Assembly (NCBI RefSeq): GCF_964213995.1
Contig: NC_135830.1
Span: 13,640,001-13,704,000, forward strand
Length of the DNA: 64,000 bases
Direction: 5' to 3'
Source of the DNA: Mustelus asterias
Lineage: Eukaryota
A model generated the notes under the pieces. It did not search any database and was not told the DNA's origin. It was given only the letters and a program-made list of their open reading frames with translations. Below are positions 1,705 through 54,021 of the stretch, piece after piece. Numbering within the stretch: the first letter of the stretch is position 1; every line of letters begins with the position of its first letter. The position numbers and the translations under genes were made by a program.

Positions 1705-2023
1705 GCTCGGGTTTATTTGACGCTTGCACCCGGCACTTCGTCTATAAATGGTGAGATCGGGCCCAATGTCTTTAATGCTAGTTCCAAGCCACTCTACTGC
1801 ACCTCTGCGTCTTGGACACCGCCGGGCTCAAAAGGCCGGGAGGTCATATCGATTGGCCGGAGCAGTGTGGAATCGGTCAAAAAAAGAGAACATGTATTTT
1901 CTTTGCGTATCAAGAATCTAAAAGTTGAAGACAGTGGCGCGCGTTGCTGCAGACCGTGTACAAATTCATGGCTCATGAACCCCGAGCACTGTGGAGGTGG
2001 CACCTTGTTGATTGTGATTAATG
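1705..2023 (+). pseudogene. Degenerate, pre-joined (V-D-J fused) IgNAR/NAR-TCR-type V domain exon
   Basis: Translation ARV...PLYCTS..TPPGSKGREVISIGRSSVESVKKREHVFSLRIKNLKVEDSGARCC-RPCTNSWLMNPEH-CGGGTLLIVIN follows the VNAR framework (short strand lacking CDR2, FSLRI.DL.VEDSG..C, GGGT J motif). A phase-1 donor G|GTAATT follows at 2024. The first Cys and the conserved Trp are lost. Confidence 0.75.
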
Positions 2024-2745
2024 GTAATTGAACTATTTTGTTACGGTTTAGCTCATGTGTTATCCGCACAAGATTGTTCATGATTAGTCTTTTCCATAAT
2101 CTTGCTTTTATTTGCTAAACCCGAAGGTTGGTTTGCTGAAGGACATTTAATTTAAAATTCTCAGAAAGTGGAATATTAAAGTCTGAGGAAATTTCAGCAA
2201 ATTTCACCACAATCGCATTGCAGACGATGCAACAAATGATGCTCCTGGCGTCATTGCATCAGCCCAAGGAACAATTGCTCAATAATACAAAGCGCTCAGA
2301 GGCAGAGAGCCCAGAGATGGAAGGGAGTCCACCAACTGGTGTCATTCACTCACTCATCTGTCCCACTTTAAACAAGAGTTGGGACAGCGGGAATACAGTG
2401 TGAACCGTTGCACCATAGAACTGACAGCACTCTAACCTAAGACATTATACCTTTCCCCACAACAAAACACACGTACACAACTGCTCGATAATTGCCAGCC
2501 TCCAGTCGAATAGTTGTTGTTTTGTGACAACAACTTCTCCCTTCTTTCAAAAGGGGAGTTAAAGAGTAGCGACAAGCTGAAGAAAAGCATTGATGTTGCA
2601 AGGATCTGTCGCCAGAGGCTCAGCAATGTGAATTGTAATAGCAGTTGAACTGGCTGAAAGATTGTCCTCCCGATTCGTACTCTGTGAGCAATGTAAACAA
2701 AATGTCCTTCAACAAATCAATCCTCAGCAAAAGCAAGAAAAAGCA

Positions 2746-2810
2746 AGGATCTGCCTAAATTTAAACTCGGTTCGCTGGGTTCAGAGAGCTCATCATTCGA
2801 CCAAAGAACC
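2746..2810 (-). pseudogene. tRNA-Gln pseudogene
   Basis: Degenerate match to the reverse complement of vertebrate tRNA-Gln, with an internal deletion. Confidence 0.65.
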
Positions 2811-2916
2811 TGGAACATAGCAACCACCTGCAAATGGTCACACAAATCAATTGACTCACTTGTTGTTGCTGCCACATTGAATGAAAGAGATCACATGCAT
2901 TGGCTGCAGTGTTCTT

Positions 2917-2988
2917 TGTTCTGTGGTGTAATGGTGAGCACTCGGGAATCCGAATCCTATGCTCGAAGTTCAGATCTCAGTGAAACAT
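2917..2988 (+). pseudogene. tRNA-Gln pseudogene
   Basis: TGGTGTAATGGTGAGCACTC...GTTCAGATCTCAGTGAAAC; stems and anticodon mutated. Confidence 0.75.
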
Positions 2989-3142
2989 TTTATTTTCCTT
3001 GTTAAAGCTGATGATTGATTTGCTGAAGGCCATTTATGTAAAATTCTCAGGAAGTGGAATTTTAAACTGAGGAAATTTCAGCAAATTCCACTCCAATAAC
3101 ATTGCAGACGATGCAGCGAATGACTCTCCTGGCGTTATTTCT

Positions 3143-3700
3143 TCCGGGTGCTCCGGTTTCCTCCCACAGTCCAAAGATCATAGAAGAAATCATAGAAACC
3201 CTACAGTGCAGAAGGAGGCCATTCGGCCCATCGAGTCTGCACCGACCACAATCCCACCCTGGCCCTACTCCCATGTTCCTACACATATTACCCGCTAATC
3301 CCTCTAACCTATGCATCTCAGGACACTAAGGGGCAATTTTTTAGCATGGCCAATCAACCTAACCCGCACATCTTTGGACTGTGGGAGGAAACCGGAGCAC
3401 CCGGAGGAAACCCACGCAGACACGAGGAGAATGTGCAAACTCCACACAGACAGTGACCCGAGCCGGGAATCGAACCCGGGAACCTGGAGCTGTGAAGCAG
3501 CAGTGCTAACCACTGTGCTACCGTGCCGCCCACAGTGTGCGGGTTAGGTTGATTTGCCATTCTAAAATTGCCCCTTAGTGTCCTGAGATGCGTAGGTTAG
3601 AGGGGTTAGTGGGTAAATTTATGGGGGTCGGGCCTGGGTGGGATTGTGGTCGGTGCAGACTCGATGGGCCAAATGGCCTCTTCCTGCACTGTACGGTTCT
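3143..3700. mobile_element. HE1-type tRNA-derived SINE (minus, 3179-3530) nested inside a plus-strand copy of the same SINE
   Basis: Full reverse-complement copy of the SINE seen at 36170-36510, flanked by the two halves of a plus-strand copy (3143-3178 and 3531-3700). Confidence 0.85.
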
Positions 3701-3981
3701 GGAGGATGATTGCTCAAGAATAAAAGAGCTCCACGGCAGAGAAACCACAGAGAGCAGGGGTCCCCTACTGGTGTCCCAATCTCAATAAGCGATGGAACGA
3801 TGAGGATAGTGGTTTCACCCGAAACCAGAATTGAACCGCGGTGCCTGACACTGTGAGGCAGCAATGCTAACCATTGTGCCACAATGCCAGAAAAGCTAGA
3901 GAGGGTGGGAGTTGACCCTACTGGTGTCATTCACTGAGTCACATTTCCCAATTTAAACACGAGTTGGGACGATAATAACCC

Positions 3982-4053
3982 TAGTTCCACCGAGATTCAA
4001 ACTCGGATTGCTGGATACAAAGTGCAGAGTGCTAACCGTCACAGAATGGAATC
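3982..4053 (-). pseudogene. tRNA-Gln(TTG) pseudogene
   Basis: Full-length degenerate match with a TTG anticodon. Confidence 0.8.
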
Positions 4054-25135: not shown

Positions 25136-27993
25136 GGTAGCGTGGCCGAGCGGTCTAAGGCGCTGGATTAAGAACAAAGAACAAAGAACAACACAGCACA
25201 GGAACAGGCCCTTCGGCCCTCCAAGCCCGCGCCGCTCCCCGGTCCAGGATTGAATCCTGAATCCAGGATCCCCACCCAATTTTCCAGCCTATCTACATAC
25301 CAATATCCTATCCACCGAGCTGTCCCTCACAGCTACGATGCTTTGTTCATTACAACCTATTAACTTACCCCCACCCCCCCATTCCAGACCATGTGATCTC
25401 CAGGGAGAGGCGAAAACCCAGAGTGAAAAACCCCAGGGCCAATATGGGGAAAAAAAAATCTGGGAAATTCCTCTCCGACCCCCTGAGGCGATCGAAACGA
25501 GTCCAGGAGATCACAATGGCCCCGATCGGAAAATGCTTCCCAACCCTAGTCATTTCCACTCCCACGAACACCATATGAATCCCCTGCCCCCGAGACAGGT
25601 TCCCAACTATCCGCAGTCTCACTCTGTACTGGCACCAGCAAGATGATCGTAGAATGAAGCCTTGAAACGAGAAACCAGGAACAATTAGCCCGCGCCGCTC
25701 CCTGGTCCAAACTAGATCACTCTTTTGTATCCCTCCATTCCCACTCCATTCATATAGCTGTCTAGATAAGTCTTAAACGTTCCCAGTGTGTCCGCCTCCA
25801 CCACCTTGCCCGGCAACACATTCCAGGCCCCCACGACCCTCTGTGTGAAATATGTCCTTCTGATATCTGTGTTAAACCTCCCCCCCTTCACCTTGAACCT
25901 ATGACCCCTCGTGAACGTCACCACCGACCCGGGGAAAAGCTTCCCACCGTTCACCCTATCTATGCCTTTCATAATTTTATACACCTCTATTAAGTCTCCC
26001 CTCATCCTCCGTCTTTCCAAGGAGAACAACCCCAGTTTCCCCAATCTCTCCTCATAACCAAGCCCCTCCATACCAGGCAACATCCTGGTAAACCTCCTCT
26101 GTACTCTCTCCAAAGCCTCCACGTCCTTCTGGTAGTGTGGCGACCAGAACTGGACGCAGTATTCCAAATGCGGCCGAACCAACGTTCTATACATCTGCAA
26201 CATCAGACCCCAACTTTTATACTCTATGCCCCGTCCTATAAAGGCAAGCATGCCATATGCCTTCTTCACCACCTTCTCCACCTGTGACGTCACCTTCAAA
26301 GATCTGTGGACTTGCACACCCAGGTCCCTCTGCGTCTCTACACCCTTTATGGTTCTTCCATTTATCGTGTAGCTCCTCCCTACATTATTCCCACCAAAAT
26401 GCATCACTTCGCATTTATCAGGATTGAACTCCATCTGCCATTTCCTTGCCCAAATTTCCAGCCTATCTATATCCTTCTGTAGCCTCTGACAATGTTCCTC
26501 ACTATCTGCAAGTCCTGCCAGTTTTGTGTCGTCCGCAAACTTACTGATCACCCCAGTTACTCCTTCTTCCAGATCATTTATATAAATCACAAACAGCAGA
26601 GGTCCCAATACAGAGCCCTGCGGTACACCACTAGTCACAGGCCTCCAGCCGGAAAAAGACCCTTCCACTACCACCCTCTGTCTTCTATGACCAAGCCAGT
26701 TCTCCACCCATCTAGCCACCTCCCCCTTTATCCCATGGGATCCAACCTTTTTCACTAGCCTACCATGAGGGACTTTGTCAAACGCTTTACTAAAGTCCAT
26801 ATAGACAACATCCACGGCCCTTCCTTCGTCAACCATTTTGGTCACTTCTTCATAAAACACCACCAGGTTCGTGAGGCATGACCTCCCTCTCACAAAACCA
26901 TGTTGACTATCGTTAATGAGTTTATTCCTTTCTAAATGCGCATACATCCTATCTTTAAGAATCTTCTCCAACAACTTCCCCACCACGGACGTCAAGCTCA
27001 CCGGCCTATAATTACTCGGGTTATCCTTCCTACCCTTCTTAAATAACGGGACCACATTGGCTATCCTCCAATCCTCTGGGACCTCACCTGTGTCCAGTGA
27101 CGAGACAAAGATTTGCGTCAGAGGCCCAACTATTTCACCTCTCGTCTCCCTGAGCAGCCTTGGATAGATTCCATCAGGCCCTGGGGATTTGTCAGTCTTT
27201 ATATTCTCTAACAAACCTAACACTTCCTCCTTTGTAATGGAGATTTTCTCCAACGGTTCAACACTCCCCTCCGAGACACTCCCAGTCAACACATCCCTCT
27301 CCTTAGTGAATACCGACGCAAAGTATTCATTTAGGATCTCCCCTACCTCTTTGGGCTCCAAGCATAAGTCCCCACTTTTGTCCCTGAGAGGTCCGATTTT
27401 TTCCCTTACAACCCTTTTGTTCCTAACGTATGAATAAAATGCCTTGGGATTCTCCTTAATCCTGTCTGCCAAGAACATTTCGTGACCCCTTTTTGCTCTT
27501 CTAATTCCCCGTTTGAGTATTTTCCTACTTTCATTATACTCTTCCAGAGCTCCCTCCGTTTTTAGCTGCTTGGACCTAACATACGCCTCTCTTTTCCTTT
27601 TGACCAGTCCCTCAATTTCCCTGGTTATCCACGGTTCTCTAATCCTACCCTTCCTATCCTTCTTTTTTACAGGCACATGCTTGTCCTGTAGCCCTAACAA
27701 CCATTCCTTAAAAGACTGCCACATACCAGATGTGGATTTACCCTCAAACAGCCTCTCCCAATCAAGAGCTGCCAATTTCTGCCTGATCCCAATAAAGTTA
27801 GCCTTCCCCCAATCCAACACCTTACCCTTGGGACACCACTCATCCTTTTCCATCACTATCCTAAAGCTAACAGAATTGTGGTCACTATTTGCCACATGTT
27901 CCCCGACCAAAACTTTGAAGACCTGACCGGGTTCATTCCCCAGCACCAGGTCCAGTCTCTGCGGAGGCGTGGGTTCGAATCCAACCGCTGCCA
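25136..27993 (+). pseudogene. tRNA-Leu(AAG) split by a CR1 LINE (5' half 25136-25172, 3' half 27951-27993)
   Basis: GGTAGCGTGGCCGAGCGGTCTAAGGCGCTGGATTAAG | TCCAGTCTCTGCGGAGGCGTGGGTTCGAATCCAACCGCTGCCA. Confidence 0.95.
25173..27950 (-). mobile_element. Young 5'-truncated CR1 LINE with uninterrupted ORF2 (EN end + RT) and ~540-bp 3' UTR
   Basis: ORF 25712-27950 has no stops and carries QHGF, DFSKAFD, GVPQGSVLGP and FADD motifs; (GTTCTTT)n tail. Confidence 0.97.
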
Positions 27994-29524
27994 AAATACA
28001 TTTGAGTTTTGGTCTAACAGCTCAGATTAAGTGCAGGAGTGCGTGCGGTGTCGTTTTCGTCATGAACAATGAGCAGGGACATTGCCAACTTAAAACGTTG
28101 TTGGGGTAAAGCAGCGTGTGTGCAAGTGGCTCCTTTCGAGAGCGCACACACAGGCTGAATTTCTGACTGCCGAGTTGAACAACCTGATGAAGGAGCAGTT
28201 CTCCTGAAAGTTCGCAATTCCAAATAAGCTTGTTGGACTTTTAACTGGTGAGAATTCTTATTGTACCCACTCCAGTCCAACGCAAGCATCTTTGCATCAT
28301 GATATAAATAACAGGATTACAAACAGTGAGACTGTATTCCCTGCCCAGGAATTAAGGTGATGGACTTGAATTTTCTAACTGAAGTTCAAATCCTATCATG
28401 TACACTTCCCATCATTCCTCGTTCTAACCAGATATTTTCAGAATTAACCTGGCTCTTGTGATAACCACCGAACTACAGAAACACGGTGATGACCTCGGGG
28501 CAAGCAGATCCGGTTTACTGAAGAAACAACTAGACTGGCTCCAGAAGCCCATCTTTTGCCCACAGCAATTGATATTACATTGTCTCTGCTGATTTTTCCT
28601 GTCAAAATGAATAACGATACTTCCTACTGCATTAAAGTTTCGTAATAACATGTTCGAGAAAAAGTATTCATGACGTGTAAAGCAAATCAACTGAACACCT
28701 GAAATTTGCGGCATTTGATCACTTTCCCCCACAAATGCTGCTGCCTCGAATTCAATGCCTCAGAACACTCATCAACGCTTTTAACAGAGGTTATCCCTAT
28801 CAGATCTGGTGCTGCAGGGAACGTAATTAGTGGAGTAGGATTGGCTCACATGTCCCATGGAGTCTCCTCCGGAATTTAAGGAGATCATGACGAATCCCAG
28901 GAATCAACATCAATTTCCAAACGTATCCTGATGGCCCTTCATTCCCTTAGATTCCAAAAATATCTCCCCCTGAAACTTCAATATTCTCATTAAAAGAGGA
29001 TCTACAGACCTCTGGCGAAGGGTCACCCAGACTCGAATCGTTGACTCTATTCTCTCTCCGTAGATGCTGCCAGACCTGCTGAGATGTTCCAGCATTGTCT
29101 GTTTTTGTTTCAGATTCCAGCATCCGCAGTATTTTGCTTTTACCGCCACCATTTACATTCCCTTTGATTTATTTTCCATCACAACTTTGTCAACTCTTCC
29201 CCACGGCTCCCACCCTCACACAACATATCCCACACTTAAAGTATCAATCTTGTCCTCTTTTCCTGTCTTCGGCTTTGATGACTGACCATACAGATTTGAA
29301 ATGTTGGCTCTATTCTCTCTCCAGAGATGCCGTCATGCCTGTTGAGATTTTCGAGCATTTTAAGTTTTTCTTTTAAGTTCCAGAATCTGCAGTAATTGGC
29401 TGTTGACTGAAGGAGTCATTCGTGTTCAATCTAAACATGAGGTTGTTTTTTCCCGACAAACCTTTCTCGAGTATTTGAAAAACGCTGCAATGTATTGGTC
29501 AGATTAAAATGCTAATTTGTATCT

Positions 29525-29596
29525 TCCCTGGTGGTCTAGTGGTTAGGATTTGGCGCTTTCACCGCCGCGGCCCGGGTTCGATTCCCGGTCAGGGAA
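29525..29596 (+). tRNA. tRNA-Glu(TTC), apparently intact
   Basis: 72-nt canonical sequence with one U-G pair in the anticodon stem; TTTT terminator at 29603. Confidence 0.93.
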
Positions 29597-30603
29597 TGTA
29601 GATTTTATAGCTGCCGACCAGCACATGATTTAGGAGGGGCTGAAATTACTTCCCGATCGATAACAGGAATGATCATTGTGCCAGTTTGAGCTCCCTGGAG
29701 AAACAAAATAATCCCATTTGCACAATCCCGTCAATTGTCTCCGGCAATTTTTCATTACATTCCCCTTGCTGCTTCCTCCTGTCAAAATGAATAATAACGC
29801 ATTCTGCTCCACTAAATTTCACTGTAGCTCACCACATTCACAGATCATTCGTAACCTCTGCGTCTTCTGTAGCTTCTTGTGGTAAATCTGCTGAACAACA
29901 TCAGAGATTTGTATCTCATTGATCATCATTACTGTCTCCATTGCTTCATTCCAGGTCACGGTCGCTACAGACATAGTCACACAGTCATTCTACCTTCTGC
30001 AGCAAATGATATACTCTTCCTTTGCTATCAGATACTTTCACCTCCAGAAACTGATTACATGATAAGTAAAATGTTCTGTTTCGTTGACAGTTTATCATCA
30101 ATCCCGGGCCTTGGAGGTGAATGGATTGACTCTGAACGACTTGACCACCTGGCCTCCAGCATCACCAGCTAAATGTTGCCTTATCCATCACTCCTTGTTT
30201 CATTGAATCATCCTCCCTAGCTTTATATCACCGAACATCCGTTTTGTTCTTTTCTCAGGTTGATTCATGGCGTTACCATCAGAAAATGTTGGAAATACTC
30301 GGCAGGTCAGTTAATGTTTCGTGGCAAATGCGTGATTATTTCTGAAAGTTGAATTACCCTGAAATTGAAAACATTTGGAAATTTTTCAGTAAAGGTGAAA
30401 TACTGCTCATGCTGGAACCTGAAACACAAAAAAAAGTACTTGAAAATCTCAGCAGGTCTGGCAGCATCTGTGAAGAGAGAACAGAGCCAATGTGTCGAAT
30501 CAGGAAATCTGATGAAGGGTCATCCAGATTTGAAACGTTTGTTTCCTCACAGATTTTTGTCAATCCTGCTGAGATTTTCCACCATTTTCTATTCCTGTTT
30601 AAT

Positions 30604-30676
30604 AAGTTTCTGCTCAGGATTGAACCAGAAATTTGCATGTGTACGGCGCCCGTGATAAGTACCACACTGCAGAAAG
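30604..30676 (-). pseudogene. tRNA-Val pseudogene
   Basis: Degenerate match; paralog at 57643-57715. Confidence 0.6.
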
Positions 30677-30829
30677 GCTGCGATGCAATGATGTAAGGAA
30701 ACTGGCTCCACAAACACGTCAATTACCTACAGCAATTTATATTTGCATTGTGTCTGCTGGTACCTCCTGTTAAAATGTTTAACGATACAATCTACTGCGT
30801 AGAATTCGTGTGATAACATGCACGACCTA

Positions 30830-31187
30830 CCGTGCATTAAATTGATCGTTCTCTACACCCAAACTATGACTGTAACAGTACATTCTGCACTCTCTCGTTT
30901 CCTTCTCGATGAATGATATGCTTTGGCTGTGTAGCGCGCAAGAAAAATACTTTCCGCTGAATGCATGTGACAATAATAAATCAAATCAAAGTTACTCCAT
31001 GAAGTTAATTAATTGAACATAATACCTTGCATTAAATTGATCTTTCTCTACACCCAAGCTATGACTGTAACAATACGTTCAGCACTCTCTTGTTTCCTTC
31101 TCGATGAATGATATGCTTTGGCTGTGTAGCGCGAAAAAAAAAATGCTTTCCACTGTATGCTAATGCATGTGACAATAATAAATCAAA
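30830..31187 (+). mobile_element. Two tandem 3'-tail fragments of the Rex1-type LINE
   Basis: Match 14445-14620; each ends in CAATAATAAATCAAA. Confidence 0.8.
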
Positions 31188-31999
31188 GTTACTCTATGAA
31201 GTTAATTAATTGAACATTTAGCAGTGAAGGGCTTCGATCACGCACCGTAACCAACGCTACTACCTTGAATTCAGGACCTGAGACTTCAATGCTGTCAGCA
31301 GAATCCATTGGTACTGGATCTGATATTGACAGTGAACAGAACCAATGAAAGAAAACTGGATTACATGTCCCATTGAGCCTCCTCCACGACAGAAACAAGG
31401 CAGATCCGCAACCTCAACCCCAATTTCCCAGCTTATCCCAATAGGTCTTCATTCCCTTAGATTCCAAAATCACTCGAACTCAAACTTCAATATCCTCAGC
31501 GACTGAGGATCCACGCACCTCTGGGCAGCTGCAGAATACTAAAGATACACAAGCGTTTGGGAGAAGAAATGTCTCCTTACATCAGTCATAAATGGCTGGC
31601 ACCTGACCCAGAGAATGTAGGTCCAGAGTGCCTGACCGAGACACTTGTCGCCATCCTTACCCACTTACCCTCACACATTTACCATGGCTCATCCATCTGA
31701 CCGACATCAGCTGCACCGTGAGTGAGAGAGTGAAAGCAGAAATATGACTGTGGCGATTTTACTGAGCGCATTTTCTTTTTTGGAAAAAAACATATTTTGT
31801 TGGATCCATATTCAGTTCATATTCAACAACGAAATACAATCTGGGAACTTTCAAGCAGTAAATTTCGATCGTGTTCGACCCTGTTTCGCATCGGAGAGCC
31901 TATCCTATCTGATAAGCCTCACACTATAGAAACTCTGCTCATGACCAATGTGACCGGCCTAGGATATCAAACCGTGCAGTCTGATTGCAATTTAGAACC

Positions 32000-34249: not shown

Positions 34250-34344
34250 TGCTCCAGGTGAGGCTCGAACTCACAACCTCGGCATAGCCCGCTGGCTGCA
34301 CTGCTGTATAAGTACCGCGCGCTAACCGATTGCGCCACTGGAGC
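34250..34344 (-). tRNA. tRNA-Ile(TAT) with a 21-nt intron (34286-34306), intact
   Basis: Canonical exons GCTCCAGTGGCGCAATCGGTTAGCGCGCGGTACTTATA / ATGCCGAGGTTGTGAGTTCGAGCCTCACCTGGAGCA; TTTT terminator. Confidence 0.96.
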
Positions 34345-39722: not shown

Positions 39723-39996
39723 GTAATCAACAGAGCACCTTTAAACAGGCCCTTTATTGTAATGAGTTCGTATTATTTCCGTGCATATGTCCATCTGAAT
39801 TTAAGTATATTATAATAAGAATAATAGGGACAAGAAAAACTGCAGCACCATAATCCTGCAACAAGATCCTCCAGTAACCTGAGAATTCACTGATCTCCCA
39901 GGCAGAGGCCATTTACCTCACGTCACCACCAGAGGGAGGTCCCTCACCGTGTTTTTGTGTTCTCTGTATCAGGAGCGGGTTCCGTTACACACTGAT

Positions 39997-41887
39997 ATAG
40001 AACATAGAACATAGAACAGTACAGCACAGAACAGGCCCTTCGGCCCACGATGTTGTGCCGAGCTTTGTCTGAAACCCAGATCAAGCTATTTCCTCCCTAT
40101 CATCCCGAAGTACTCCATGTGCCGATCCAATAGCTTTTAAAATGTTCCTAAAGTTTCTGACTCCACTATCCCTGCAGGCACTCCATTCCACACCCCAACC
40201 ACTCTCTGAGTAAAGAACCTACCTCGGATATCCTTCCTATATCTCCCACCATGAACCCTATAATTATGCCCCCTAGTTACCGCTCCATTCACCCGAGGAA
40301 ATAATCTTTGAACGTTCACTCTATCTATCCCCCTCATCATCTTATAAACCTCTATCAAGTCTCCTCTCAACCTCCTCCGCTCCAAAGAGAAAAGCCCAAG
40401 TTCCCTCAACCTTTCCTCATAAGACCTACCCTCCAAACCAGGCAGCATCCTGGTAAATCTCCTTTGCACTCTTTCCAGTGTCTCCACATCCCTCTTGTAG
40501 TGAGGTGACCAGAACTGCACACAATATTCCAAATGTGGTCTCACCAAGGTCCTGTACAGTTGCAGCATAACCCGACGGCTCTTAAACTCAAACCCCGTGT
40601 TAATGAACGCCAACACACTATAGACCTTCTTCACGGCTCTATCCACTTGAGTGGCAACCTTCAGAGATCTATGGATATGAACCCCAAGATCTCTCTGTAC
40701 CTCCACATTCTTCAGAACCCTACCTTTGACCCTGTAATCCACATTTAAATTTGTCCTACCAAAATGAATCACCTCACATTTATCAGGGTTAAACTCCATT
40801 TGCCATTTTTCAGCCCAGCTCTGCATCCTATCTATATCTGTTTGCAGTCTACAACAGCCCTCCACCTCATCCACTACTCTACCAATCTTGGTGTCATCAG
40901 CAAATTTACTGATCCACCCTTCAGCCCCCTCCTCCAAGTCATTTATAAAAATCACAAATACCAGAGGACCAAGCACTGATCCCTGTGGCACTCCGCTGGT
41001 AACCGGTTTCCAGTCGGAAAATTTTCCATCCACCACCACCCTCTGTCTTCTGTTAGATAGCCAGTTACCTATCCAATCGGCCAAACTTCCCTCAATCCCA
41101 CACATCCTTACTTTCTTCATAAGCCGACCGTGGGGGACTTTATCAAACGCCTTACTAAAATCCATGTATATGACATCAACTGCCCTACCTTCATGTACAC
41201 ACTTAGTTACCTCCTCAAAAAATTCTATCAAATTTGTGAGGCAAGACTTGCCCTTCACAAATCCGTGCTGACTATCCCGGATTAAGCTGCATCTTTCTAA
41301 ATGGTCGTAAATCCTATCCCTAAGGACCATTTCCATCAACTTACCGACCACCGAAGTAAGACTAAGCGGCCTATAGTTACCAGGGTCATTTCTATTCCCT
41401 TTCGTAAACAGAGGAACCACATTCGCCACTCTCCAGTCCTCTGGCACCACCCCCGGGGACAGTGAGGACGCAAAGATCAATGCCAAAGGCTCTGCTATTT
41501 CATCCCTTGCCTCCCAAAGAATCCTAGGATATATTTCATCAGGCCCAGAGGACTTATCAACTTTCAGTTTATTCATAATTGCTAGTACATCTTCCCTCCG
41601 AACATCTACTTCCTCCAGCCTATTAGCCTGTGACACCTTCTCTTCCTCAAAAACATGGCCCCTCTCCTTGGTGAACACCGAAGAAAAGTATTCATTCATC
41701 ACCTCTCCTATCTCTTCTGACTCCATGCACAAATTCCCACTGCCGTCCTTGACCGGCCCCAGCCTCACCCTGGTCATTCTTTTATTCCTCACATCAGAGT
41801 AAAAAGCCTTGGGGTTTTCCTTAATCCGACCCGCCAAGGACTTCTCATGCCCCCTCCTAGCTCTCCTAAGCCCCTTTTTCAGCTCAT
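39997..41887 (-). mobile_element. 5'-truncated CR1 LINE with a long open RT frame
   Basis: 587-aa ORF with full RT motifs; (GTTCTAT)n tail. Confidence 0.96.
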
Positions 41888-42189
41888 TATAGGGAGACAT
41901 AAATCAGGAGAATTGGATTAATTGTTGGATTACACAGTGAACTCCTTAACAGTGATAGTGCTGGACCTTTTCTTCTGGTGCACATGTACTGTAAACCATC
42001 CACCAGCTCTTTCATCTCTGAATGTGGAGAAAGGGTAACCAGGAGCTCGATTGAAGAACTGTCTGTACAAAACTAGAAACTTGGTAGAGGCGATGGTGAT
42101 GTGGTGATGAAGCAAAATGCTTTCTCCATCTGTTCCTTGAATAATCAAGATCTGTAATCCCTCCAGGTGACAACGCAAAGCTGACAAAT
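41888..42189 (-). pseudogene. Degenerate TCR-like V segment relic
   Basis: Acceptor TTGCAG|AT, then ..IQGTDGESILLH..LVLYRQFFNRAP..FTVHV..KKRSSTITVKE with V-set spacing. Cys and Trp lost; stop codons present. Confidence 0.5.
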
Positions 42190-51469: not shown

Positions 51470-53970
51470 GAATTGCTAAGCAGATTATGGATAGGTGTGG
51501 GAGTCACAGGGTAGTTGTCATGGGAGACTTTAACTTTCCAAATATTGATTGGAACCTTTGTAGGTCGAATAGTTCGGATGGGGCAGTTTATGTGCAGTGT
51601 GTGCGGGAGGGTTTCCTGACACAATATTTGGATAGGCCGAAGAGGTGGGGCCACATTGGATTTGGTACTGGGAAATGAACCGGGGCGAGTGTTAGATTTG
51701 GTTGTGGGAGAGCAATTTGGAGATAGTAACCACAATTTGGTGTCTTTTGTTATTGCAATGGAGAGGGATAGGGCCCGATGGCAGGGCAAGGTTTATAATT
51801 GGGGGAGTGGTAATTATGATGCGATTAGGCAAGAATTAGGGGGCATAAGATGGGAACAGAAACTGTCAGGGAAAGGCACTAATGAAAAGTGTAACTTTTT
51901 CAAGGAACAAATACTATGTGTCCTTGATAGGTACGTCCCTGTCAGGCAGGGAGGAAATGGCCAAGTGAGGCAACCATGGTTCAAAAAAGAGGTGGAATGT
52001 CTTGTAAAAAGGAAGAGGGAAGCTTGTGTAGGGATGAGGAAACAAGGTTCAGATGGCTTGATTGAGGGTTACAAATTAGCAAGGAATTAGCTGAAAAGGG
52101 GGCTCAGGAGAGTTAGGAGAGGGCATGAGAGGTCCTTGGCGGGTTGGATCAAGGAAAACCCCAAGGCATTTTACTCTTATGTGAGAAGTAAAAGAATGAC
52201 CAGGGTGGGGATAGGGCCGGCCAAGGATAGTAGTGGGAACTCGTGTATGGAGTCAGTAGAGATAGGAGAGGTGATGAATGAATAGTTTTCTTCAGTGTTC
52301 ACCAAGGAGAGAGGCCATGTGTTTGAGGAAGAGAAGGTGTTACAGGCTAATAGGCTGGAGGAAGTAGATGTTCGGAGGGAGGATGTACGAGCAGTTTTGA
52401 ATAAAGTGAACGTCGGTAAGTCCCCTGGGCCTGATGAAATGTATCCCAGGATTCTTTGGGAGGCAACGGATGAGATTGCAGAGAGCCTTTGGCTTTGATG
52501 TTTGGGTCCTCATTGTCCACGGGGGTGGTGCCAGAGGACTGGAGAGTGGCGAATGTTGTTCCTCTGTTTAACAAAGGGAATAGAAATGACCCTGGTAATT
52601 ATAGGCCGGTTAGTCTTACTTCTGTGGTTCCTAAGTTGATGGAAAAGGTCCTTAGGGATGGGATTTACGAACATTTAGAAAGATGCGGATTAATCCGGGA
52701 TAGTCAGCACGGATTCGTGAAGGGCAAGTCGTGCCTCATAAATTTGATAGAATTTTTTGAGGAGGTAACTAAGTGTGTTGATGAAGGTAGGGCAGTTGAT
52801 GTCATATACATGGATTTTAGTAAGGTGTTTGGTAAGGTCCCCCATGGTCGGCGTATGATGAAAGTAAGGAGGTGTGGGATAGAAGGAAAGTTGGCCGATT
52901 GGATAGGTAACTGGCTGTCTGATCGAAGACAGAGGGTGGTGGTGGATGCAAAATTTTCGGACTGGAGGTAGGTTGCTAGCGGAGTGCCACAGGGATCAGT
53001 GCTTGGTCCTCTGCTATTTGTGATTTTTATTAATGACTTAGAGGAGGGGGCTGAAGGGTGAATCAGTAAATTTGCTGATGACACCAAGATTGGTGGAGTA
53101 GTGGTGAGGTGGAGGGCTGTTGTAGACTGCAAAGAGACATAGATGGGATGCAAAGCTGGGCTGAAAAATGGCAGATGGAGTTTAACCCTGATGAATGTGA
53201 GGTGATTCATTTTGGTAGGACAAATTTAAATGTGGATTACAGGGTCAAAGGTAGGGTTCTGAAGACTGTGGAGGAACAGAGAGATCTTGGGGTCCATATC
53301 TACTGATCTCTAAAGGTTGCCACTCAAGTGGATAGAGCTGTGAAGAAGGCCTATAGTGTGTTAGCATTAATTAACAGGGGGTTGGAGTTTAAGAGCCGTG
53401 GGGTTATGCTGCAACTGTACAGGACCTTGGTGAGACCACATTTGGAATACTGTGTGCAGTTCTGGTCACCTCACTATAAGAAGGATGTGGAAGCGCTGGA
53501 AAGAGTGCAAAGGAGATTTACCAGGATGCTGCCTGGTTTGGAGGGTAGGTCGTATGAGGAAAGGTTGAGAGAGCTAGGGCTGTTCTCTCTGGAGCGGAGG
53601 AGGTTGAGGGGAGACTTAATAGAGGTTTATAAAATGATGAAGGTGATAGATAGAGTGAACGTTCAAAGACTATTTTCTCGGGTGGATGGAGCTATTACAA
53701 GGGGGTATGACTGTAGGGTTCATGGTGGGAGATATAGGACGGATGTCCGAGGTAGGTTCCTTACTCAGAGAGTGGTTGGGGTATGGAATGGACTGCCTGC
53801 AGTGATAGTGGAGTCAGACACTTTAGGAACATTTAAGTGGTTATTGGATAGGCCCATGATGCACACCAGGATGATAGGGAGTGGGATAGCTTGATCTTGG
53901 TTTCAGATAAAGCTCGGCACAACATCGTGGGCCGAAGGGCCTGTTCTGTGCTGTGCTGTTCTATGTTCTA
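51470..53970 (+). mobile_element. CR1 LINE (EN end + RT), several stops and frameshifts
   Basis: VVVMGDFNFP, DLVLGNEPG and RT motifs; same subfamily as 39997-41887. Confidence 0.96.
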
Positions 53971-54021
53971 AGTTCTGTAGAATATGATCAGACCGACAGT
54001 TCCATCATCAAATCAGCCTAC

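Follow-up and report, generated by a model that had tools for sequence, protein, structure and literature searches.

The locus considered here raises the question of whether a tRNA gene that is split at its anticodon by a retrotransposon was sought out by that element or was hit by chance. The window (the whole 64,000-nucleotide stretch of Mustelus asterias DNA that was analysed) contains a tRNA-Leu(AAG) gene that is interrupted just 3' of the anticodon by an antisense, 5'-truncated CR1 element at 25170-27956 (Table 1). The gene was missed by default ARAGORN and Rfam scans of the window. When long introns were allowed, ARAGORN called a single tRNA-Leu(aag) at 25135-27994 with an interruption of 2,776 nt. 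The split by a young antisense CR1, which the initial annotation had read from the letters, is borne out with all of its features in place. The same annotation counted two substitutions in the 3' half. One of them, a C>A change at 27983 that leaves G51 and A63 mismatched in the T stem, is found in none of the 41 distinct cassette paralogs and is private to this copy; the other, a G in the variable loop, is the usual state of the gene family in this genome. A spliced tRNA intron would be short, follow base 37 and leave both exons whole. This reading was considered and rejected, since what follows base 36 is a 2.8-kb LINE, and the anticodon loop, having lost bases 37-38, would not be regained by excision. 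We propose with considerable confidence that a young, high-copy, 5'-truncated CR1 interrupts one of dozens of duplicate tRNA-Leu(AAG) genes, likely by chance and through ordinary target-primed reverse transcription.

Table 1. Positions in the window of the tRNA gene parts, the CR1 element and their junctions.
Feature	Position	Strand	Support or remark
Segmentally duplicated tRNA cassette (Gln-like, Lys, Leu and Glu genes and pseudogenes) containing the target gene	20251..31751		97-99% identical to two other contigs over the fetched stretches
tRNA-Leu(AAG) 5' half: acceptor 5' strand, D arm, A box (25143-25153), anticodon (25170-25172)	25136..25172	+	45 exact copies genome-wide; ARAGORN
3-nt microhomology between anticodon and CR1 tail repeat; 3' junction of the element	25170..25172
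CR1 3' tail, three 7-nt tandem units	25170..25190	-	Siblings with the same tail
CR1 3' UTR, long type	25191..25711	-
441-nt 3' UTR segment, between 22-nt near-identical direct repeats (25225-25246 and 25688-25709)	25247..25687	-
Predicted long branched hairpin in the 3' UTR segment	25385..25520	-	-58.8 kcal/mol, z -4.69, 0/200 shuffles as stable
5'-truncated CR1 ORF2: last ~26 aa of the endonuclease domain, intact RT; stop at 25712-25714	25712..27956	-
6-nt microhomology TCCAGT at the 5' truncation point, common to ORF2 and the 3' strand of the tRNA anticodon stem	27951..27956
tRNA-Leu(AAG) 3' half: variable arm, T arm/B box, acceptor 3' strand	27951..27993	+
ORF2 frame extension through the antisense tRNA half and flank; stop-free, ATG-free, incidental	27957..28021	-
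T4 run 3' of tRNA-Leu(AAG), likely Pol III terminator	28007..28010	+	Common to most paralogs

The architecture of the element, its tandem-repeat tail and its motifs fit the CR1 clade, to which it was assigned on these grounds. Its siblings end in a tandem tail of 7-nt units rather than poly(A), and their 5' truncation points vary. The window copy lacks ORF1 and the 5' UTR, and a domain search with its ORF2 frame returned RVT_1 as the only hit (E 1.4e-37). A more complete sibling (L261) has a 982-aa ORF2 frame that contains an Exo_endo_phos domain at residues 57-261 (E 1.4e-12) followed by RVT_1 at residues 545-773, and its upstream frame is an esterase-type ORF1 (Lipase_GDSL_2, E 5.9e-09, above the cut-off). 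An esterase (GDSL/SGNH) domain in ORF1 is a feature of CR1-like elements. The window fragment is identical to this sibling at 745 of 747 residues and starts at its residue 236, so most of the endonuclease is missing; with neither ORF1 nor most of the endonuclease, the window copy would not move on its own. The 441-nt segment of the 3' UTR is carried by 13 of the 30 siblings sampled, which are of the same long-UTR type as the window copy, and is absent from the remaining 17, an older short-UTR type with 92-96% identity. Possibly the segment was captured as a 3' UTR module and identifies the most recent expansion of the subfamily. The window copy is young: compared with the majority state of its best siblings, it has four private differences over 2,787 nt. 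Elsewhere in the window lie two CR1 copies that belong to another subfamily (39996-41888 and 52085-53979); they are mutually inverted and share 90.8% identity over 1.9 kb. Near the start of the window there are also a G-rich and a C-rich array (661-1039 and 1200-1513) of ~40-nt units, again mutually inverted, with a TGACGTCA-type palindrome in each unit.

The state of the site before insertion can be read from the paralogs of the cassette. Searches with each flank listed 40 paralogous places at 90-99% identity, and the two nearest paralogous cassettes (10 kb fetched) are co-linear with the window on both sides. One (L122) is 97.3% identical to the window over 4.9 kb upstream and 98.5% downstream, and the other (L123) 97.7% upstream and 98.9% downstream. 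Both have exactly two bases between the tRNA halves and therefore establish that the target lost 2 nt (bases 37-38) and that there is no target-site duplication (TSD), in agreement with what had been deduced from the window itself. Since these empty paralogs show the pre-insertion site, the locus provides a clean example of a CR1 junction. An attempt to deduce empty sites from the sibling pool was usable in 14 of 68 siblings, at least two of them mis-paired, and no deletion rate was taken from it. The paralogs also bear on whether the structure is an assembly artefact that joins two repeats. Multicopy partners in a segmentally duplicated region speak for such an artefact, but the probability that we give to it is negligible because two empty paralogs match the flanks co-linearly on either side, the four private differences are spread along the LINE copy, and the junctions have the form expected of retrotransposition. 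Among the other cassette copies, one (L042, on G000:C71 near 13735000; also L225) has a 13-nt internal tandem duplication across the anticodon of its tRNA-Leu(AAG). An old CR1 insertion in non-tRNA DNA (L317-L320, four places fetched, and ~27 listed places on C71 and smaller contigs) has been multiplied together with the cassette and would be useful to order the segmental duplications.

Microhomology had been proposed at both ends of the insertion and is present at both. At the tail it is 3 nt (AAG) as described, while the match on the 5' side of the LINE is 6 nt (TCCAGT) rather than 5, because all 29 of the 29 longer siblings match the window through 27956 and diverge beyond it. These junctions suggest the following sequence of events. 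The ORF2 of an active sibling would have cut one strand at the anticodon, the one opposite the tRNA, and three target bases would have paired with the 7-nt tail repeat and primed cDNA synthesis. Reverse transcription would have ended after ~2.8 kb, with the cDNA end annealing to the 6-nt match two bases further on. Trimming and joining would then have removed bases 37-38, of which the outcome is observed, leaving a short target-site truncation and no short TSD.

Published CR1 and L2 junctions, cited here from excerpts of the reports concerned, provide a frame for this outcome. TSD lengths peak at 3-5 bp for CR1 and L2 (PMC4245944, citing Ichiyanagi and Okada 2008), six short truncations are given among 30 inserts of ZfL2-1 in HeLa-RC cells (PMC4245944), and genomic ZfL2-2 copies have microhomology at ~50% of 5' junctions and ~80% of 3' junctions (PMC2666801). 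An annealing pathway of 5' joining, and a range of 2-6 bp for microhomology-mediated joining, are described in PMC4760211. Within the CR1 family itself, TSDs of at least 5 nt were found in 11 of the 59 siblings for which both flanks were available, versus 5.5% in shuffled pairs (p 3e-4), sibling TSDs shorter than 5 nt being indistinguishable from chance. Since short TSDs, not deletions, are the detectable signature of the family, the window copy represents a minority outcome. A missing TSD and a small deletion would also be expected if the element had been captured at a pre-existing double-strand break, or if the 2 nt had been lost in later repair, without the use of its own endonuclease, and the 6-nt match equals the upper limit of the 2-6 bp given for such joining (PMC4760211). 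However, the complete 3' tail sits flush on a 3-nt match, as expected of priming by the tail, a T precedes it in the window copy as in 37 of 59 siblings, and short truncations are a published outcome of normal integration by elements of the CR1/L2 type (PMC4245944). Capture at a break is thus very improbable.

A rival reading is that the element is sequence-specific, for which its antisense position in the anticodon arm and the multicopy target would speak. Insertion at this arm in this orientation is described for the Dada families in the excerpted parts of PMC8869645, and a CR1 that targets the tRNA anticodon, in the manner of Dada-tL or of the target-specific non-LTR elements, would have been new. 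The family as a whole argues against it. The 47-nt CR1 3' end has 13,079 exact copies in the 3.68-Gb genome, and a 22-nt anchor of the wider family has 32,185; the 40 best matches, which lie on many large contigs, show ~100% identity over 521 nt. A tRNA gene at the tail junction was found in none of 59 siblings taken irrespective of their flanks, namely 29 of the best 3' UTR matches and the first 30 exact copies of the 3' end, and an Rfam scan of 20 of them gave no hits. Several of these siblings lie in tRNA-derived SINEs, which are very abundant in the genome. The tRNA-CR1 junction of the window occurs once genome-wide, and 44 of the 45 exact tRNA-Leu 5' halves continue into an uninterrupted 3' half. 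The enrichment of tRNA genes in the subfamily flanks, which the initial annotation had named beforehand as the check on targeting, is therefore lacking.

Genome-wide scans for further events used an A-box or B-box consensus joined to the CR1 anchor; they demand an exact anchor and a consensus box, and they reach a portion of each tRNA body and a subset of isotypes. The A-box scans gave 64 matches and 118 matches (100 of the latter among the matches listed), and the B-box scan gave 18. From the 164 A-box matches listed, 21 were fetched as longer stretches (14 of 64 and 7 of 100) and the remainder were judged from the printed sequence; among those fetched, a tRNA was present at L202 and L203 only. 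The B-box matches were rejected as tRNA insertions: 14 of the 18 directly show the head of a tRNA-derived SINE, and the six fetched at greater length proved to be four SINEs and two stretches of unrelated sequence. Among the matches listed, the junction scans thus contain one other case of a CR1 within a tRNA, in a different tRNA and at a different position. It involves an older short-UTR sibling that directly follows the D arm in a decayed tRNA, in antisense orientation, found at G000:C16:82918933 (L202) and G000:C100:1452104 (L203), which count as a single event because their junctions are identical on the two contigs. We take this decayed tRNA to be Gly-like. An element specific for a target would have most of its copies at one position of one multicopy gene, and what was found is two events among ~32,000 screened 3' ends. 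Strict tRNA targeting by this CR1 family is excluded by these genome-wide counts. With only one of 45 identical targets hit, a junction that is unique, at least 13,079 copies elsewhere and an ORF2 fragment nearly identical to that of a sibling at a non-tRNA site (L261), a sequence-specific preference for the anticodon is exceedingly improbable.

A weaker bias, by which a regional or chromatin preference would lead the CR1 family to favour Pol III loci or tRNA clusters a few-fold and of which the window insertion would be one product, must be measured against the number of hits expected by chance. In tRNA-cluster DNA (five samples, 854 kb in all) ARAGORN found 35-69 tRNA genes per Mb, and in 292 kb of sibling-flank DNA it found one. 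A rough extrapolation from the 854 kb of samples puts the genome total at ~2,500 tRNA genes, or ~4,000 when decayed copies are included; an Rfam tRNA family search of the genome returned 897,371 rough candidates, 63 of them scored, and gave no usable total. With 2,000-4,000 tRNA-like genes, random insertion would place 1.3-2.6 family members in tRNA bodies and 0.54-1.08 in the positions screened. Two independent tRNA-body events were seen, an excess that is not significant (P for two or more 0.10-0.30) and that includes the event of the window, which prompted the search. When only the 45 exact Leu(AAG) genes are counted, the chance expectation falls to 0.03, a low value that speaks against chance, although this isoacceptor was chosen after the fact among many tRNA types. 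Both insertions are antisense, as a bias might produce, yet they differ in isotype, position and element subtype. The density of the family is likewise higher in the tRNA-cluster samples than genome-wide (12.7 versus 8.7 per Mb), but again not significantly so (P 0.16), and the cluster value is inflated because one old insertion was multiplied by cluster duplication. A weak preference is accordingly unlikely, and random insertion remains the preferred reading.

The initial annotation regarded the locus as a live tRNA gene killed by the insertion, a view that may be judged from the cassette family. At least 41 duplicated copies of the cassette exist, the target among them, and private mutations are accumulating in these copies. 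Over the history of the family the tRNA body has been conserved, with pairwise differences of 2.6% versus 8-14% in the flanks, but singleton changes are not depleted in the tRNA body (0.32 per site versus 0.13-0.23 in the flanks), and the modal tRNA body is kept in only 15 of the 41 distinct copies. The interrupted gene has an A box, a B box and a T4 run, and ARAGORN accepts its body, with the one private mismatch in the T stem. In the window lineage, the flank (7,326 nt compared) has acquired 39 private changes since the cassette duplication, versus four in 2,787 nt of LINE, which places the insertion in about the last 27% of that branch. On such a neutral clock the mismatch at 27983 probably predates the insertion (probability ~73%), and the gene may have begun to change before it was split, although a single T-stem mismatch need not abolish tRNA function. 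The interrupted gene would no longer make a tRNA, as Pol III transcription of it is expected to have been lost with the A box and B box now 2.8 kb apart. With at least 44 uninterrupted copies remaining, the loss of this tRNA-Leu(AAG) copy was likely neutral.

Other tRNA genes were noted in and beyond the window. An intron-containing tRNA lies at 34250-34344 of the window, called Ile-TAT with a 21-nt intron when ARAGORN was allowed introns and Tyr-ATA in an intron-less run, and decayed Gln, Lys and Asn tRNA copies lie near it. On G000:C16, at ~97.26-98.64 Mb (L269), near-identical tandem tRNA arrays with ~1.8-kb spacing, containing Lys-TTT and Thr-AGT in the sample, differ from the dispersed type of cassette around the window.

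Two products of the interrupted locus were considered. The LINE reading frame had been noted to continue into the antisense tRNA, and this frame is real, being 769 aa from stop to stop; its continuation is incidental. The 22 codons that lie outside the LINE contain no ATG, and the probability of finding no stop in 22 codons is 0.35, or one in three, so that a meaningful tRNA-LINE fusion ORF was rejected. A putative Pol III chimera, consisting of the tRNA 5' half and the LINE tail, is unlikely because the B box has been shifted 2.8 kb from the A box. A B-box look-alike is present in the LINE 3' UTR at 25247-25257, 94 nt past the A box, and is followed by a T4 run at 25280-25283. The B box has an invariant C, which is absent from the look-alike. 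Were the look-alike used, a 148-nt chimeric Pol III RNA would end at 25280-25283, and as a tRNA 5' half joined to an antisense LINE tail it could act in antisense silencing of the active CR1 family. The combined proposal, that the family weakly prefers Pol III genes or tRNA clusters in antisense orientation and that the gene also makes this RNA, is highly unlikely.

By itself, the loss of a single redundant tRNA copy to a random LINE insertion matters little; if the insertion varies between individuals, it could serve as a presence/absence marker. The literature search found neither a tRNA-targeting CR1 nor any account, for genomes of this kind, of tRNA genes interrupted by LINEs. As to the identity of the element, the window CR1 and its flanking SINEs presumably resemble HER1 and HE1. 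HER1-type CR1s and the present family would have in common an esterase-type ORF1, an ORF2 with endonuclease and RT, a short tandem-repeat tail and a very high copy number. The window subfamily may differ in its structured 441-nt segment of the 3' UTR, which is absent in older siblings. HER1 and HE1, a CR1-clade LINE of cartilaginous fish and its SINE partner, are both named in a table of PMC3747384.

The insertion is real and is likely ordinary genome wear rather than the work of a tRNA-seeking element. Like Dada-tL, -tA, -tD and -tV, the window copy runs opposite to a multicopy tRNA gene and sits in its anticodon arm. In the excerpts cited, Dada elements are DNA transposons with a DDE-like transposase that insert antisense in the anticodon arm with TSDs of 6-7 bp and have family-specific RNA gene targets (PMC3706591, PMC8869645), whereas the present element is a LINE with no TSD, and only one of its thousands of copies lies in this tRNA. 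The resemblance is one of place only and fails on recurrence at one site. R1 and R2 in 28S rDNA, Utopia in U2 and TRE5-A near tRNA genes (the last from an excerpt of PMC3706591) are similarly non-LTR elements associated with multicopy RNA genes, but these concentrate at one site or distance, while the CR1 family is dispersed and has no detectable site preference. The closest parallels are zebrafish ZfL2-1 (CR1-1_DR) and ZfL2-2 (CR1-2_DR), for which the data come from the fish genome or from cultured cells. Their commonest outcome is a TSD of 3-5 bp, unlike the 2-nt loss in the window. According to the excerpts of PMC2666801, PMC4245944 and PMC4760211, however, they share with the window copy 5' truncation, microhomology at both junctions, short target alterations that include truncation, and insertion without a sequence-specific target.
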